Source: a virus (Duplodnaviria > Heunggongvirae > Uroviricota > Caudoviricetes). From it: 8,079 nucleotides of DNA. Location of the stretch: the IMG/VR virus record IMGVR_UViG_2657244943_000011. One strand, 5' to 3'. The translations under genes were made by a program, and so were the position numbers. Below the pieces are notes generated by a model. That model searched no databases. It had not been told where the DNA came from and saw only the letters and a list, made by a program, of their open reading frames with translations. This document shows, piece by piece, positions 3,001 to 8,079 of this stretch. Each line of letters begins with the position of its first letter. The stretch's first letter is position 1.

Positions 3001-3801
3001 ATGAAACTGCGAAAAACGCCCGTACAGGGGCAGGGCTTCGTTCGGCCTGAAAACCAGAATCTGCAAAATTTCGGCGAAATTATCCCGGTTATTTCCGGCG
3101 TTATTGGCGGGCGTGAAACCAATATTGTTAGCGGCAGAGCGTTGCATAAGGCGTTAGGTGTAGGTCGCGTTTTCCGTTCGTGGATCAAGGGGCGCATTGA
3201 AGAATACGGCTTCACGGAAGGCGTGGATTATGAGGTTGTTGAATATTTGAGCCGACCCGATCCGGTGAGCGCAAAATCTCGCCAGCAAACAGCTCTTGAG
3301 TACATCATTACCGTGAACATGGCGAAAGAACTGGCGATGGTCGAACGCACCGAACAGGGGCGCGCCGTTCGTCAGTACTTCATCAAATGCGAGGAAGAGC
3401 TACACAAGGTTGCGCCTGTACGTTCCGCAGCGTTACGCCGGGAACTGAAAGCCCGTATCACAGTTGCCAGCTACTTTAAGCCAATGTGTGCCGCGCTGGA
3501 GGACTACCGGGCTGAACTGGATAAAAACACTCTACAGCACCACTACACCACGGAAGCCAATATGCTGGCGCGTATCGTGCTGGGTGGCATGACTGCAAAA
3601 CAGTGGGCGCAGGTGAACGGCATCACAGGCGAACCACGCGACCACATGAGCACGTTGCAGCTTGAGCACCTTTCTTACCTTGAGCAGAGCAATATCACGC
3701 TGATTGAGTTAGGCCAGGACTACCACCAGCGGAAGGCTGAATTAATTCGTCTTTCGCAGCGTTGGTTAGCCCGTCGCATGGAGGAAAACAGCCATGTGTA
3801 A
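3001..3801 (+). CDS. phage antirepressor-like protein (AntA/AntB N-terminal domain type)
   Basis: 266-aa ORF, AGGAG 6 nt upstream of ATG 3001, TAA stop 3799-3801. Segment RALHKALGVGRVFRSWIKGRIEEYGFTEGVDYEV...ITVNMAKELAMVERTEQGRAVRQYFIKCEEEL resembles the AntA-type antirepressor N-terminal domain from memory; not verified by search. Confidence 0.6.
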   Translation: MKLRKTPVQGQGFVRPENQNLQNFGEIIPVISGVIGGRETNIVSGRALHKALGVGRVFRSWIKGRIEEYGFTEGVDYEVVEYLSRPDPVSAKSRQQTALEYIITVNMAKELAMVERTEQGRAVRQYFIKCEEELHKVAPVRSAALRRELKARITVASYFKPMCAALEDYRAELDKNTLQHHYTTEANMLARIVLGGMTAKQWAQVNGITGEPRDHMSTLQLEHLSYLEQSNITLIELGQDYHQRKAELIRLSQRWLARRMEENSHV

Positions 3802-4260
3802 CGCTCTGACCGTTACAAAAAGAGAAAGCGCCCCGTTGCCGGAGCGCCTTTGTGAACGAATAGCCTACTGCGCCATATTGCTTACTGTCTACGAGGCAGA
3901 TTATAGCGTTGTGGTCGCACAGAGTGAAGGCGCTGATCACCGTTACTACAGCACGCCAGAAATGCAGAATATTTTGCTGCAAAATGCCGTTGGCCACGCT
4001 GTCCGGAAAGCAAAAAATTTTGCTGGTGGCGCGACTGATGCGATTTTGTCAGGTCGCCAGGTGCTGATCAATCTGATGTCTGATTTCGTTCTGGATAAAA
4101 CAAAGGCGACCGCAGAGAGCCGCCAGTGGAAAAGCTACATACTTGAACGCATCACCAACAATGCCACATTTGCGGCTGGTGGGCAATGTGTCAGCTTTGC
4201 ACCAATGACTCTAGGTTTAACTGAGGGTCATTATGGTGAATATGCTGGCTTGCTGGTGGG
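3794..4260 (+). pseudogene. uncertain ORF / possible gene remnant; good start signals but no credible stop (frame runs on to 5380)
   Basis: ATG 3794 overlaps the upstream stop (ATGTGTAA) and has TGGAGGA 8 nt upstream, the same coupled-junction architecture as real genes downstream. The first ~140 codons look protein-like; beyond about 4200 the translation becomes Cys/Ser-rich and then runs antisense through the minus-strand gene at 4519-4824. The end coordinate is arbitrary. Confidence 0.2.
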
Positions 4261-4518
4261 CTATTCCTGCTCTTTAACATCGCCATGCCGCGATGTTTTC
4301 CAGGTATGCGACCCCATTTTTGTGCGCCTGTACTCTTTAAGGAATTTCTCAAGGATAAACGCACAGGGCGCGAATCTGTCTGACTCATGCTCGTACGCTA
4401 TCTTTCTGCGCTGTCTTTTCCGTGCCGGTGATGGTGTATTGGTTGATTCTTTGTTGGTCATGGCGCTGCCCTGTAAAACGATGCACCGTAGTTCCTCACA
4501 CCACGGCGCTGGTGATGG

Positions 4519-4824
4519 TTACTCCTGTTCTTTGGCCTTGCGCCGCTGGAGTTCTTCACGCGCGACGGTGACGAGTTGCCCGATCTCCTCGGCTGCTTTG
4601 ACACCGATTTTTTCCACCTGCGCCAGTGCATCGAGCGAAGAAACCAGGGGATTTTCTCCGCTTCCTTCTGCCTGGCGGCGGGCGATTTCACCGCGAACGG
4701 CTGTAATCACGAAAGCGGCTATTGTTTCCCCTTCCGTTTTCGAATTTTCCATTTCCTCGATTACATCATGGGGGAAGCGGATATTTTTCATTTGCGATCT
4801 GCTGTTGATGTTTCCTGTTGCCAT
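4519..4824 (-). CDS. putative ribbon-helix-helix (Arc/MetJ/CopG-like) DNA-binding regulator
   Basis: 101-aa minus-strand ORF with well-formed composition, unlike the plus-frame translation of the same DNA. N-terminal KNIRFPHDVIEEME followed by helical GETIAAFVITAVRGEIARRQA fits a beta-strand/helix/helix RHH pattern. Divergent from the small-gene operon across a palindrome-rich intergenic region. Start could be ATG 4824 or the internal ATG 4791; neither has a strong SD. Confidence 0.5.
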   Translation of the reverse strand: MATGNINSRSQMKNIRFPHDVIEEMENSKTEGETIAAFVITAVRGEIARRQAEGSGENPLVSSLDALAQVEKIGVKAAEEIGQLVTVAREELQRRKAKEQE

Positions 4825-5014
4825 CAGAATGTCCGGTTATTTTGAGGTGTGTACACATTACACCAAAAGGTGTGTTGATAAAACACTTGACACTGTAGCA
4901 CACTTAAATCTAATCTGTGTATACACTAATGATTGTGGTGTATATACAGCAACGCCCCGCAGTGGTGGCACACATGCAGGGCGTCTAACCAAACCGTTAA
5001 ACGAGGTAACGATT
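4825..5014. promoter_or_regulatory. divergent promoter/operator region with three perfect 10-bp palindromes
   Basis: TGTGTACACA (4848-4857), GTGTATACAC (4917-4926), TGTATATACA (4939-4948); additional GGTGT/ACACC half-sites; consensus -35 hexamer TTGACA at 4887-4892 and TTGATA at 4875-4880. AT-rich relative to flanks. Confidence 0.5.
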
Positions 5015-5380
5015 ATGGCTGGAACACAGCATACCCAAACTCACCCTAAATTTATATACACCTTCCTGGCGGTGCACCGTGATTGCATAGCTGACGGTAA
5101 AAACACTGTACACGTAGCCGCTGATACGCTGGTTGATGCCTGCGAGATGCTCAATGACATGGGCTATATCTCGGCAACATGGAAAGGGCGCGAAGAAAAC
5201 ACGCTGTTTATTCAGAAATGCGAGAACAATTTTATCTGGCGTTTTATCGCCCTGAGCACAGCACAACCGCGCGTAATTCACATCGAGGCCACCAGCGAAC
5301 AGGAAGCGCGTCAGCAATCTCCTGATGGCTGCGTGATGGTATTCGCTGCCCGTATTCGCCAGGAGGTGCACCATGCATAA
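5015..5380 (+). CDS. hypothetical protein (first gene of small-gene operon)
   Basis: ATG 5015 with GAGGT 7 nt upstream, TAA stop 5378-5380; 122 aa. In frame with the run-on ORF 3794-5380 but with its own initiation signals. Stop overlaps the next start. Confidence 0.6.
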   Translation: MAGTQHTQTHPKFIYTFLAVHRDCIADGKNTVHVAADTLVDACEMLNDMGYISATWKGREENTLFIQKCENNFIWRFIALSTAQPRVIHIEATSEQEARQQSPDGCVMVFAARIRQEVHHA

Positions 5381-5738
5381 CCTGTCAATTTATGACCTTA
5401 ACAGCATTCAGTTTCGTGAGAAATTCACCGAGCAGCTACTGGTTAACGTGGAGAATGGACGCGTGGTAAGTAATTATCACCTGCCGGATGGTGCAATTGC
5501 CGGAAGCGTTGAAGCATTGCTGGAACTGGCAGAACGTGCGCGACTTATTAAGCCGTTAACGAACCATCACGATGATGATCTGCATTTTACCGGACGCATG
5601 GTGAGTCACTACGAAAACGGCGTCGAGGTATCCCGCGAACGGCTGCGTGATGATTGCTGTTTCGGAACACTGCCGGAATTTAGCGAACTGCTGACCCGTT
5701 GCGATTACCGGATCATTCAGGGGGGAAGTCATGGGTAA
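5373..5738 (+). CDS. hypothetical protein
   Basis: 121-aa ORF; strong SD AGGAGGT (5361-5367) 5 nt before ATG 5373; 8-nt overlap ATGCATAA with upstream stop; TAA stop 5736-5738. Confidence 0.65.
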   Translation: MHNLSIYDLNSIQFREKFTEQLLVNVENGRVVSNYHLPDGAIAGSVEALLELAERARLIKPLTNHHDDDLHFTGRMVSHYENGVEVSRERLRDDCCFGTLPEFSELLTRCDYRIIQGGSHG

Positions 5739-5931
5739 TCAGCCAGCAACAATGACAATTACCCTGAATGTGCCAGATGATTTCACCGGGCGCGTACTGG
5801 TTTACCTGGATAAAGGGAAAGTGAAATCACAATGCCGACTGCGAAATAATGAAATTGTAAGTACGGTAGAAGGCTTTTCTGAACTATGTATTCGTGCAGG
5901 AATAAAACCGGAACTGCTGACAGGAAAATAA
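5731..5931 (+). CDS. hypothetical small protein
   Basis: 66-aa ORF; start overlaps upstream stop (ATGGGTAA); purine-rich GGGGGGAAG just upstream; TAA stop 5929-5931. Confidence 0.6.
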   Translation: MGNQPATMTITLNVPDDFTGRVLVYLDKGKVKSQCRLRNNEIVSTVEGFSELCIRAGIKPELLTGK

Positions 5932-5935
5932 AACC

Positions 5936-6226
5936 ATGAAAAAGAAAAATTCTGGCTTTACTGCCAGCGGCCTCTCTCGGTCTGCAATTCGCTCTGGCGA
6001 TATTTACCGCGACACCAGACGTGGGGGACGAGTGGTTATTCGTCACGTTACGCCAGGCAATATCACCTACCGCCGTGAGGCTTACGAATATGACTGCGTA
6101 ATGCCGCGCCGTCAGTTTGAGCGTGATTTTATTCTGGTGGAAAACAAACAATTGGCGGTGGCAAGACGTGCAGCCTCGAATATTAAAAAAATCCGGGCAA
6201 TGTTGGTTGCGGGAGGTAAGAAGTGA
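5936..6226 (+). CDS. hypothetical small basic protein
   Basis: 96-aa ORF 4 nt after the upstream stop; Lys/Arg-rich termini (MKKKNSG..., ...VAGGKK); TGA stop 6224-6226 overlaps the GTG start of the next gene (GTGA). Confidence 0.6.
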   Translation: MKKKNSGFTASGLSRSAIRSGDIYRDTRRGGRVVIRHVTPGNITYRREAYEYDCVMPRRQFERDFILVENKQLAVARRAASNIKKIRAMLVAGGKK

Positions 6227-8079
6227 AAAACGCACCGAATTTAAAATATCAGCCAAAGGATAAATTCACCGAGGTAATCATTTTTGCCGGGACGGATGCT
6301 TACGCCCATGCTCAACACTGGATTGAAAGCGAAGGACGAAAACACGGCGATAACGTGCCACCTGTTTACCTGGGGCCAACGCAACTGGCAGATCTGGCTA
6401 ATATCCGCATTATCGACGATGAGCGCCGCTTTGCGCGTGTTTATATCGCGGGGGAGATAGAGCCAATCCAGATCAATGCTATCGCTGAAAAGCTGGCGCT
6501 GGCTGGCGTACAGGATGCGAAATTATACAAAGGCATCACCGACCGGGAGCCGGAGAACTGGCGCGACTACCTGCAACGGATCCGCGAACAGGCAGAGCGC
6601 GGGGAAACCATTCCTGAAGGAATCGGAATAGCTGGTGGATCACCCGGTAAAACAGACCCCATGAAACCGCATATTACCGAAAAAGACGGGGCGCTCTGGT
6701 ATATCGAGCCAATCCCCAACACCAGGGCAGAGGAGATGAATTATAAAGAAACCTGGCTGAGTGACCGGATGCGCACGGCAGGTATTGGTAACGACGGAAG
6801 GGAAGCGTATCTGATCATTGAAATGATCCCGGAAGGGACACAAAAAATTATTTACGAAGCGATGCCGCGCAATGAAATCGGTATGCCCGCAGGATGGGCG
6901 CGATTACGTGGGCGGGGAGTTGCAATCACTACCAGTGCCCATTTACTGAACAAACTGGCGGAATACCTGCAACGTCATGGAGATCGCACGGTGTGGGAGG
7001 TCACATCAACAGCAGGTTGGCATTGTGGAGCCTATGTTATGCCTGATGGCGAGGTGATTGGTGTGCCTGACCGTCCCGTAGCATTCTGCGGCGGATCTGC
7101 CGCCATCAAAGGCTATATTGTCAGGGGCACGGTGCATGAATGGCGAAATAATGTTGCTTCTCTGATGCGTGGCAATCACTCAATGATGCTTGGGGTGCTG
7201 GTCGGGCTGGCAGCCCCGCTAAATTCCCTTGTGGGTGGTAGTTGTTTTGGTATTCATCTTTTCGCGCAGTCGTCAGCGGGGAAAACCACGACTGTGGAGG
7301 CCGCCACCAGCCTTTATGGCGACCCTGAAATGCTTAAACTCTCGTGGGATGCCACCCGGCACGGGCTGACAGTGGAAGCAGCTGCACGTAATGACGGTTT
7401 TATCCCTATTGATGAAATTGGTCAGGGAGGAAGGGTTAATGACATTGCGCAATCCGCCTACAGCCTGTTTAACGGTGTGGGCAGGATTCAGGGGCGCAAG
7501 GACGGCGGTAATCGTGCGGTAATGCGCTGGAAAATAGCGGCACTAAGCACCGGAGAAGAAGATTTTGAAACCTTCCTGTTAAAAGGGGGAATTGCCCCAA
7601 AGGCAGGGCAACTGGTGCGACTGCTAAGCATTCCCTTTACCGATACAACGGTGTTTAACGGTTATGACGATGGTGATCAACATGCCAGGGCCATAAAGCG
7701 ACTTTCATCAAATTATTGTGGCGCTGCGGGACGTGAGTGGGTGCGCTGGTTATCCGCTCACAAGGAGCTGGCTATCAACACCACTTCAGATAAAGAAAAT
7801 GCCTGGCTGGGAAATCTGCCTGAAAATGCCTCGTCACAGGTAAGGCGAGTGGCATCGCGATTCGCCATGCTGGATGCAGCCGGAGAGCTTGCCACCGCAA
7901 TTACTGGCTGGACAACTGAAGAATGCCGGGAAGCAACGCAACGGGCTTTTGATGACTGGCTACAGGATTTCGGGCTGGAAAACCGGGAAAAATATCAGGT
8001 CATCAGTAAGCGTGCAGCAAGAACCGTATTGACGGGGATGTGTTATTCAGTCGGCAGTGCTACGCGCCAGGGGAGCAGT
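6223..8079 (+). CDS. P-loop NTPase, probable replication primase/helicase-like protein of the island (3' end truncated by window)
   Basis: Open frame 1 from GTG 6223 (in-frame TAA at 6217-6219 just upstream; GGGAGG 6211-6216) to the window end, at least 619 codons; not in the ORF track because it has no stop in the window. Walker A FAQSSAGKTT (about 7261-7290) and Walker B-like GFIPIDEIGQ (about 7396-7425). Large ATPase after small coupled genes is the usual position of the replication protein in P4-family/PICI-like islands. Confidence 0.7.
   Translation, partial: MKNAPNLKYQPKDKFTEVIIFAGTDAYAHAQHWIESEGRKHGDNVPPVYLGPTQLADLANIRIIDDERRFARVYIAGEIEPIQINAIAEKLALAGVQDAKLYKGITDREPENWRDYLQRIREQAERGETIPEGIGIAGGSPGKTDPMKPHITEKDGALWYIEPIPNTRAEEMNYKETWLSDRMRTAGIGNDGREAYLIIEMIPEGTQKIIYEAMPRNEIGMPAGWARLRGRGVAITTSAHLLNKLAEYLQRHGDRTVWEVTSTAGWHCGAYVMPDGEVIGVPDRPVAFCGGSAAIKGYIVRGTVHEWRNNVASLMRGNHSMMLGVLVGLAAPLNSLVGGSCFGIHLFAQSSAGKTTTVEAATSLYGDPEMLKLSWDATRHGLTVEAAARNDGFIPIDEIGQGGRVNDIAQSAYSLFNGVGRIQGRKDGGNRAVMRWKIAALSTGEEDFETFLLKGGIAPKAGQLVRLLSIPFTDTTVFNGYDDGDQHARAIKRLSSNYCGAAGREWVRWLSAHKELAINTTSDKENAWLGNLPENASSQVRRVASRFAMLDAAGELATAITGWTTEECREATQRAFDDWLQDFGLENREKYQVISKRAARTVLTGMCYSVGSATRQGSS

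Follow-up and report, generated by a model that had tools for sequence, protein, structure and literature searches.

A translationally chained block of small genes at the head of a satellite replication operon, with a predicted SymR-like antisense RNA over its first start codon

The four small genes at positions 5015-6226 of the window, by which we mean the whole 8,079-nt stretch of viral DNA analysed here, are real genes and constitute the translationally chained front end of a satellite replication operon. The region is best explained as the early/replication operon of a Gram-negative (GN) PICI-type satellite, which would combine a repressor-controlled promoter, a SymR-like antisense gate and serial coupling of the cistrons; we assign this explanation a probability of about 0.6.

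The chain lies on the plus strand and starts with ORF1 (5015-5380, 121 aa; Icd-like), which is followed by ORF2 (5373-5738, 121 aa) and ORF3 (5731-5931, 66 aa), carrying two copies and one copy of phrog_340, respectively, and by ORF4 (5936-6226, 96 aa; DUF4222). It runs into a DUF927 primase/helicase gene (6223-8079, plus strand; PF06048, 140 bits; phrog_1139 'DNA primase', E 8.8e-80), which is cut by the end of the window and encodes 710 aa at full length in E. coli 55989. As read from the sequence, 8-nt overlaps join ORF1 to ORF2 (cATGcaTAA) and ORF2 to ORF3 (cATGggTAA), a 4-nt gap separates ORF3 from ORF4 (TAAaaccATG), and ORF4 overlaps the primase gene by 4 nt (GTGA). SD-like motifs (GAGGT, AGGAGG, GGGGGG, AGGAAA and GGGAGG) precede the starts of the chain, and no terminator-like site was found on the plus strand within 5015-6600. 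RefSeq annotates all four genes and starts the first at 5159, which gives a product of 73 aa; the start at 5015 is supported by its strong SD, by the conservation of residues 1-62 at the protein level in homologues of 58-85% identity, and by a dN/dS of 0.20-0.22 over the N-terminal 62 codons. All four small genes are under purifying selection, with dN/dS between 0.14 and 0.45 (ORF1, 0.14-0.21; ORF2, 0.20; ORF3, 0.45; ORF4, 0.31-0.33). Coordinates, junctions and dN/dS agree with an earlier note, which had described four coupled small genes, each with an SD site, feeding a replication gene; of the lengths given there (122, 121, 66 and 96 aa) the last three hold, and the figure of 122 includes the stop codon of ORF1. 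The single operon leading into a replicase that it had proposed is likewise upheld, the downstream gene being that of the DUF927 protein. Because such overlaps are abundant in 88 related loci, where 134 of 280 junctions are 8-nt and 74 are 4-nt overlaps, the tight coupling is not a chance trait of the window.

Judged from its genes and its insertion site, the element is a GN PICI-type satellite at tRNA-Thr(CGT) of E. coli 55989/O104:H4. In the window, tRNA-Thr lies at 115-190, int at 357-1571 and alpA at 2725-2922; in 55989, the island measures about 15 kb, between tRNA-Thr and a point shortly before paoD, and contains int, an int-alpA RNA, alpA, AntA, the primase, ProQ/FinO, PerC and PARIS, the distal AAA/DUF4435 pair matching AriA/AriB (PARIS). 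The co-orientation of int, alpA and pri is a hallmark of GN-PICIs (PMC10111431), and the three genes are co-oriented here, in an island-sized element with a defined att site. [quoted passage not shown] In those parts of the PICI literature that were accessible, the small genes ahead of pri are unnamed and uncharacterised, and Icd-like genes are listed only as accessory genes. The 'icd' of PMC10111431 is isocitrate dehydrogenase and does not denote an Icd-like gene.

The 88 related loci, which span at least three integration sites and at least three primase types, share one plan: an Icd-like gene, one to four swappable small cassettes, usually DUF4222, and the primase. The middle cassettes belong to at least 12 families, and the Icd-like, DUF4222 and primase genes stay. 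The Icd-like core is present in 732 of 5426 complete genomes; a profile search of genome contigs with the Icd alignment gave two loci only.

ORF1 matches NF033153, the Icd-like host cell division inhibitor family, with 80.6 bits (cutoff 25) over residues 73-116, P1 Icd itself scoring 52.6 bits; against residues 12-50 of P1 Icd, 18 of 42 positions are identical (43%; pairwise E 1e-6). The kinship is distant, since P1 was absent from the tblastn matches of ORF1 in the phage collection at E 1e-3. By sequence comparison, ORF1 appears to consist of two Icd-like domains, a degenerate N-terminal one (about residues 1-62) and a canonical C-terminal one (73-116). When aligned, the N-terminal domain is 46% identical to the Icd core of vB_KppS-Ant (E 1e-8), and it is only through this intermediate that an internal duplication is suggested; direct BLAST and a narrow HMM between the two halves gave nothing significant. 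PDB sequence and profile searches with ORF1, ORF2 and ORF4 yielded nothing credible. As an Icd-like protein, ORF1 is a candidate for host interference, which fits the suggestion in the earlier note of host-interference proteins with a cell-division phenotype. That no protein of the chain could be assigned to a family, as was also stated there, does not hold: HMM and profile searches place them in the Icd-like, phrog_340 (twice) and DUF4222 families.

A related allele has probably been met experimentally in ECOR61. According to Silas et al. (bioRxiv 10.1101/2023.04.06.535777), a growth arrest triggered by phage orf24 is suppressed when Tn5 inserts into an Icd-like gene of 366 nt or into the next two genes, removal of the Icd-like gene abolishes the arrest, and the complete set of six linked genes, with the primase among them, is needed for it. 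A six-gene locus in IMG/VR (L046; 121, 61, 63, 73, 99 and 583 aa, with overlaps of 8 and 1 nt) matches this system in gene sizes and overlaps, on which the identification is based. ORF1 shares 86% identity with the Icd-like protein of L046, and ORF4 shares 49% with its DUF4222 protein. Taken through L046, the ECOR61 allele shares with the window the operon type, the 121-aa Icd-like protein, the coupled small genes and the same leader with the predicted antisense RNA; it differs in its middle cassettes (61, 63 and 73 aa), which come from families other than those of ORF2 and ORF3, and in its primase, which is alike, at 49% identity, over only the first ~130 residues.

The ECOR61 phenotype also speaks for another explanation, that the operon chiefly serves abortive infection or superinfection exclusion, with the Icd-like toxin being restrained by the antisense RNA and the repressor, and freed when an accessory protein of an invading phage is sensed, and the cassettes acting as sensors of different phage triggers. 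The hypervariable cassette slot is as expected of sensors in an arms race, and the cargo of sister islands includes TIR, Abi and PARIS genes. We nevertheless regard this explanation as unlikely, if the strongest of the alternatives. The ECOR61 growth arrest depends on the primase/helicase, and the life-cycle genes of a satellite are int, alpA and pri, so that the 'programmed cell death' may instead be induction of a satellite by a helper-type signal. Moreover, protection against phage is not reported for the ECOR61 system in the accessible part of its description, the models of PADLOC-DB 2.0.0 match none of ORF1-4, YlcI or the primase, and ORF2 and ORF3 differ from the ECOR61 cassettes. An abortive-infection function is compatible with the replication-operon explanation.

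The start of ORF1 is covered by a predicted SymR-like cis-antisense RNA of ~77 nt, encoded on the minus strand from about 5020 to 4944 and supported by covariation, minimum free energy (MFE) and covariance models (CM). Its 5′ hairpin presents an anti-SD loop, CCUC, and covers the ORF1 AUG; its 3′ hairpin (4952-4984) is GC-rich and has a tail containing U. In 33 distinct sequences, pairing is preserved in 97.9% of cells with 125 G.U pairs when read on the minus strand, compared with 82.7% and no G.U pair when read on the plus strand. Covariation scores 0.29, whereas shuffles give 0.13 (0 of 500 reach 0.29) and slid controls 0.03-0.08, and the MFE is -33.7 kcal/mol (z -3.7). A CM built from Icd-linked sequences only (R1) matches the annotated K-12 SymR over its full length (36.2 bits, E 3e-8). 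Conversely, Rfam SymR (RF01809) finds the RNA on the correct strand and at the correct position in two relatives (L017 and L020) with 35-36 bits, below its gathering cut-off of 61, and has no match in the window itself. On the minus strand, TATGCT (5028-5033) stands 7 nt ahead of the predicted +1, the offset at which symR has its experimentally defined -10, TAGAAT; the mechanism of SymR is as described in PMC1891008. In 29 distinct sequences, the free synonymous sites of the first nine ORF1 codons are almost invariant, dS elsewhere being about 0.5, a pattern consistent with a promoter and the 5′ end of the RNA being embedded there. A plus-strand match to the R1162 antisense RNA was insignificant (17.9 bits, E 1.1) and was discarded.

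The arrangement shares several features with symE/symR of K-12, a type I toxin-antitoxin pair. Both have a 77-nt cis-antisense RNA, predicted in the case of the window, that begins 6 nt into the target ORF and whose -10 has the same offset, both RNAs form two hairpins, contain the inner terminator loop GUGUUnGCGCAC and pair with the SD and AUG, and the CM matches are reciprocal, with scores below the Rfam gathering cut-off. They differ in the target, which is the AbrB-fold SymE in K-12 and the Icd-like head of a replication operon in the window, and in the LexA box, of which none was seen in the promoter region of the window (no CTG-N10-CAG on reading 4825-5014). Given this geometry, with the promoter in the first codons, the +1 6 nt inside the ORF and the SD and AUG masked, and given the growth-inhibitory annotation of the Icd family, ORF1 and the antisense RNA could be read as an addiction module of the type I toxin-antitoxin kind, by which the island is stabilised, the later genes merely sharing the transcript. 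Such a role is improbable: the pair always stands at the head of a serially coupled replication operon, and the equivalent RNA-icd pair of P1 and P4 is an immunity/induction switch.

In the immI region of P1 (c4 RNA-icd-ant1/ant2), the leader also belongs to the Icd family and its RBS is the target of a small antisense RNA. The stop of icd and the start of ant1, which follows it, overlap; the annotation describes icd as 'required for expression of ant', with C4 repressing at the RBS, so that control of icd is control of the downstream genes. P1 differs in that its C4 RNA (RF01695) pairs in trans and is processed from the same strand, whereas the RNA of the window is encoded in cis on the opposite strand; in that an antirepressor, not a primase chain, lies downstream; and in that ORF1 has two Icd-like domains. 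The left operon of P4 is arranged similarly, as CI RNA, 'cI ORF' (Icd-like), epsilon, orf151, orf106 and the alpha primase, with an AlpA/Vis-like gene upstream; the 'cI ORF' has an Icd-like domain at its end (NF033153, E 7.8e-21), and the small genes are linked through overlaps, of 8 nt where the 'cI ORF' meets epsilon. The P4 analogy drawn in the earlier note thus amounts to positional homology along this series of genes. The helper-derepression role attached to it finds no sequence support, as BLASTP of ORF2-4 against P4 epsilon, orf151 and orf106 gave nothing below E 0.3 and the PHROGs differ (10016, 10748 and 5991). In P4, the C4/CI RNA lies directly ahead of the Icd-like ORF; RF01695 gave no match in the window at E<=1, nor in 4800-5200 at E<=10, P4 as the positive control scoring 74.9 bits. 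The island of the window also carries no sid, delta or psu.

Upstream of ORF1 lies a divergent gene of the YlcI/YnfO family (4519-4824, minus strand, 101 aa; NF041551, 64 bits, cutoff 30), whose product also has a weak Rv0623-like ribbon-helix-helix match. The gene occupies the equivalent position in loci L005-L018, and the intergenic palindromes vary between loci with different YlcI alleles; its product is a putative ribbon-helix-helix repressor of the operon. A repeat search and reading of the sequence point to operator-like GTGTAYACAC repeats at 4847-4856, 4917-4926 and 4938-4947. These flank a predicted plus-strand promoter, TTGACA (4887-4892) and TCTAAT (4909-4914) with a 16-nt spacer, which a consensus scan did not list because of the C at position 2 of the -10 hexamer.

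Downstream of the leader, ORF2 matches phrog_340 in two stretches (E 3.4e-27) and ORF3 matches it with E 4.1e-18. The two repeats of ORF2 match each other with E 3e-5, a tandem duplication of a domain of ~60 aa, and BLASTP finds ORF3 35-39% identical to both (E 1e-5 to 2e-7), so that by these comparisons ORF3 is taken to be a paralogue of ORF2 with a single copy of the domain. Natural ORF2 variants of 67-91 aa have arisen by recombination, in register, of its two repeats. Finds of the phrog_340 domain are almost exclusively enterobacterial, and a profile search with ORF2 gave 27 cluster representatives among 1.84 billion. Three giant proteins were rejected as ORF2 homologues, because their many short matches (27-53 residues) reflect motif-level similarity; the one checked in detail (P0313) consists of Cadherin_5/Big_9 repeats. 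ORF2 and ORF3 have no match in the Pfam-A and NCBIfam versions searched, and two close homologues bear a precomputed PF27490 label. The AlphaFold2 model of ORF2 (19 homologues; pLDDT 41.5) was unusable. ORF4 matches DUF4222 (PF13973) with 69 bits (gathering cutoff 27) over residues 17-68, and its predicted fold is a five-stranded Tudor/SH3-like barrel with a basic C-terminal helix. The literature that names DUF4222 attaches no function to it, and no functional study of ORF2-4 or of the antisense RNA was found in the literature.

The fixed stoichiometry that the earlier note read from the coupling is unlikely to be what the coupling is for, since the middle cassettes differ in number and family from locus to locus and the Icd-like, DUF4222 and primase genes are retained. 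That the four proteins and the primase form one complex is the least probable explanation: despite tight overlaps throughout the chain and a DUF4222 gene that almost always adjoins the primase, the one to four middle cassettes come from at least 12 unrelated families, one locus (L008) pairs the same four small genes with a D5_N/DUF5906 primase, and ORF2 is found in one-repeat and two-repeat forms. The coupling is more in keeping with translational control at one point, the first cistron, which the SymR-like RNA covers.

On the replication-operon explanation, a single transcript would arise from the promoter controlled by YlcI/YnfO at the GTGTAYACAC operators and would carry five serially coupled cistrons. 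The SymR-like RNA, made constitutively from within the first codons of ORF1, would pair with the SD and AUG of ORF1, and because each later start overlaps or abuts the prior stop, a block at the first cistron should restrain the entire chain, by analogy with the action of C4 RNA on icd-ant in P1. A phage signal would derepress transcription, which would then outrun the antisense RNA; the Icd-like protein may next halt host division or growth, and the DUF4222 protein may work with the primase/helicase in replicating the excised island, ORF2 and ORF3 probably being exchangeable accessory cassettes. Of this, the analysis establishes the genes with their families, selection and synteny as well as the structure and strand of the RNA, whereas YlcI repression, the RNA gate and its spread along the chain, the toxicity of Icd and the partnership of DUF4222 with the primase are inferred.

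A broader reading is offered tentatively, with the odds somewhat against it: the SymR-family cis-antisense RNA may be a portable gate that enterobacterial satellites place over a toxic Icd-like leader and that, through the 8- and 4-nt overlaps, sets the threshold of the whole operon, functionally replacing the C4/CI RNA of P1 and P4. K-12 symE/symR, on the chromosome, would be a relative of this switch of mobile elements, and the conserved CAGGAGGTGCACCATGCATAA-type junctions would double as joints for cassette recombination.

To judge from the 732 complete genomes with the Icd-like core, PICI- and P4-type satellites are common in E. coli. They are carriers of defence systems, but what lies between their alpA and primase genes mostly goes by the name 'hypothetical'. 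This block now gains a coherent design, with a probably toxic Icd-like leader, a cassette slot, a DUF4222 protein as the likely partner of the primase, and an antisense RNA. The link to ECOR61 suggests that some reported triggers of 'programmed cell death' may be inducers of satellites, and the antisense RNA, previously unannotated, could be the post-transcriptional immunity switch of the satellite.

The reading of ORF1-ORF4 as a coupled plus-strand operon in which each gene has its own ribosome-binding site, put forward in the earlier note, is borne out by the junctions, the Shine-Dalgarno (SD) motifs, purifying selection and the lack of any plus-strand terminator-like site within the block. 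ORF1 (5015-5380), ORF2 (5373-5738), ORF3 (5731-5931) and ORF4 (5936-6226) lie directly before a plus-strand DUF927 primase/helicase gene that runs past the window end, and the junction texts are, in order, cATGcaTAA, cATGggTAA, TAAaaccATG and GTGA, with a purine-rich SD ahead of every start in the chain. All four plus-strand frames are selected as protein (dN/dS 0.14-0.45; ORF1, 0.14-0.21; ORF2, 0.20; ORF3, 0.45; ORF4, 0.31-0.33). RefSeq annotates all four genes in E. coli 55989 and begins the first at 5159 (73 aa). The frame of ORF1 is open for 528 codons upstream (3794-5380), and public records (P0063-P0065 and P0074) hold Icd-like proteins of 184-212 aa that start ahead of both the predicted promoter (4887-4914) and the antisense RNA. 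Because a strong SD precedes 5015, residues 1-62 are conserved at the protein level in homologues 58-85% identical, and dN/dS is 0.20-0.22 for these 62 codons, 5015 is the supported start, and both annotated alternatives are probably wrong.

The Icd-like model NF033153 gives ORF1 a score of 80.6 bits (cut-off 25), and residues 73-114 of ORF1 are 43% identical to residues 12-50 of P1 Icd. Because its N-terminal ~60 residues align with the Icd core of the satellite-like element vB_KppS-Ant (46% identity, E 1e-8) and also with the beginning of the Icd-like segment of P4, ORF1 is most likely a tandem pair of Icd-like domains; direct self-comparison of ORF1 detected no internal duplication. ORF2 and ORF3 both match phrog_340, a domain of ~60 aa present twice in ORF2 and once in ORF3, and natural ORF2 variants of 67, 73, 83 and 91 aa are in-register hybrids between both repeats. 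Fusions of ORF2 to the following cassette (169-196 aa) also occur in nature; P0036, P0042, P0045, P0049, P0052 and P0053 are such natural variants of ORF2. This is a small family: one search gave 61 clusters, with named members all from E. coli or Salmonella, and 1.84 billion proteins contained 27 representatives. ORF1-ORF4 matched neither PADLOC models nor, in a sequence-based search, solved structures. The unknown function originally given to all four genes is thus narrowed for ORF1 and, at the fold level, for ORF4 (DUF4222), but not for ORF2 and ORF3.

The ~80 nt preceding ORF1 are kept among loci with differing promoters and operators. When 33 distinct sequences were aligned and read on the minus strand, they folded into two hairpins, of which the 5′ hairpin presents an anti-SD in its loop and an arm over the AUG, and the 3′ hairpin is GC-rich and usually followed by a U-rich tail (only moderately so in the window). 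Pairing is kept in 97.9% of pairing cells on the minus strand, including 125 G.U pairs, versus 82.7% and no G.U pair on the plus strand, and this asymmetry points to a minus-strand transcript as the molecule under selection. Nine pairs are altered at both positions, and the covariation score of 0.29 lies above those of slid controls (0.03-0.08) and of shuffles (0.13), none of which attained it in 500 trials. The folding energy of the copy in the window is -33.7 kcal/mol (z -3.7). In two relatives, the Rfam SymR model matches at precisely this position and on this strand with 35-36 bits, below its gathering score of 61, and a model built solely from Icd-linked sequences matches the annotated K-12 symR over its full length (36.2 bits, E 3e-8). 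The predicted +1 lies 6 nt inside ORF1, which is the geometry of symE/symR, and is preceded at 7 nt by a -10-like TATGCT with a weak -35; the experimentally defined symR -10, TAGAAT, occupies the same spot (PMC1891008). In the first nine codons of ORF1 (MAGTQHTQT, 5015-5041), free synonymous sites are near-invariant among 29 distinct relatives (dS ~0.5 in the rest of the sequence), which indicates constraint at the nucleotide level and fits an embedded promoter.

The analogy with P4 drawn in the earlier note holds for gene position. The old 'cI ORF' of P4 carries an Icd-like domain at its end (E 7.8e-21) and shares 8 nt with epsilon, after which come orf151, orf106 and alpha, so that the positional homology of an Icd-like ORF ahead of small genes and a primase is real; ORF2-ORF4, however, are not related to epsilon, orf151 or orf106. 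In both P4 and P1, the C4/CI RNA precedes the Icd-type ORF by ~50 nt, and the P1 record states that C4 blocks the icd ribosome-binding site, that icd overlaps ant1 and that icd is 'apparently required for expression of ant'. No C4 RNA was found in the window, where the predicted SymR-like antisense RNA appears to stand in its place.

The window is identical to E. coli ARS-C301 (100%), shares 99.9% identity with 55989 and O104:H4, and forms the left portion of a ~15 kb island beside tRNA-Thr(CGT) (115-190). Co-oriented int, alpA and pri at a tRNA are described as hallmarks of Gram-negative PICIs (PMC10111431). The integrase gene (357-1571) is followed by a plus-strand int-alpA RNA motif (Rfam RF02996, 1616-1683; 44.2 bits, gathering score 35.8), a hypothetical gene (267 aa), alpA (2725-2922) and an AntA-family gene (3001-3801). 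A stronger copy of the motif (62.8 bits) occurs at 2297-2362 of a Tenebrionibacter relative (L020), and the 460-nt stretch after the AntA gene (3802-4260) has no annotated gene. Two genes lie on the minus strand, a YlcI/YnfO-family gene (4519-4824) and, downstream of it, a hypothetical gene of 66 aa (4261-4461); a minus-strand terminator-like site (4509-4483) separates them. In 55989 (locus L001), the island continues with ProQ/FinO and PerC-family genes downstream of the primase (18042-18856), several hypothetical genes and AriA/AriB, and ends before paoD. At its distal end (22479-24435), an AAA ATPase and a DUF4435 protein match PADLOC AriA (E 5e-43) and AriB (E 3.6e-22), so that the cargo of the island includes a PARIS-type defence system. 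It is conceivable, as an idea only, that a FinO-type RNA chaperone encoded by the satellite targets the SymR-like antisense RNA.

The exact ORF1 protein is present in hundreds of assemblies, and the same four-gene block occurs at at least three chromosomal sites with two integrase types. At one locus (L008, 7209-9014), identical ORF1-ORF4 are joined to another replicase (D5_N/DUF5906/Pox_D5, 601 aa) in place of DUF927, which shows recombination at the DUF4222/primase boundary. Genes were chained and proteins clustered for 81 IMG/VR loci found by a pattern search with the first codons of ORF1, four E. coli genome loci (L015-L018) and three others including the window. Every chain is headed by an Icd-like gene (66-122 aa), continues with one to four small cassettes from at least 12 unrelated families, most commonly that of ORF2/ORF3 (55 copies), and terminates in a primase/helicase of at least three types, with DUF4222 second-to-last in about 45 of the 56 complete chains. 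Because cassette content varies, the fixed stoichiometry proposed earlier is unlikely. The 280 junctions include 134 overlaps of 8 nt, mostly CATGnnTAA/TGA, and 74 of 4 nt, and the junction text (SD, start and stop) recurs between unrelated cassettes, so that their proteins share the ends '...VHHA' or '...SHG'; this suggests that junctions may serve as recombination joints. Some islands are helper-embedded PICIs placed within a prophage capsid gene, with TIR or Abi genes adjoining the YlcI gene. In L015-L017 (about 330-2200 and 3170-3370), the module from YlcI through the Icd-like gene to DUF4222 and primase belongs to islands that interrupt a prophage major capsid gene, and alpA and ylcI flank a slot occupied by a gene for a TIR-domain protein, one for an Abi protein, or a hypothetical gene.

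The proposed toxic effect has experimental backing from ECOR61, in which phage gene orf24 causes growth arrest, Tn5 suppressors fall in an Icd-like gene of 366 nt and in the two small genes that follow it, and the effect requires the whole set of six linked genes, the primase among them, and is lost without the Icd-like gene (bioRxiv 10.1101/2023.04.06.535777). These genes match the L046 allele (121/61/63/73/99/583 aa), an identification that rests on gene sizes and overlaps; L046 has the same leader, and its Icd-like protein shares 86% identity with ORF1. The arrest may represent defence or mere satellite induction, and these readings are compatible with each other.

An icd-led, antisense-controlled, coupled early operon is a system type already known; what is new is the predicted SymR-type cis-antisense RNA instead of C4, the probable two-domain Icd, and the cassette array terminating in DUF4222 and primase. 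The GTGTAYACAC repeats flanking the predicted TTGACA-16-TCTAAT promoter are the probable binding sites of the divergently encoded YlcI/YnfO ribbon-helix-helix protein. By analogy with SymR and P1, the antisense RNA would mask the SD and AUG of ORF1, and serial coupling would extend this block as far as the primase. Once the operon is induced, the Icd-like protein would stop division or growth and DUF4222 would aid the primase/helicase, with ORF2 and ORF3 as probable accessory cassettes.
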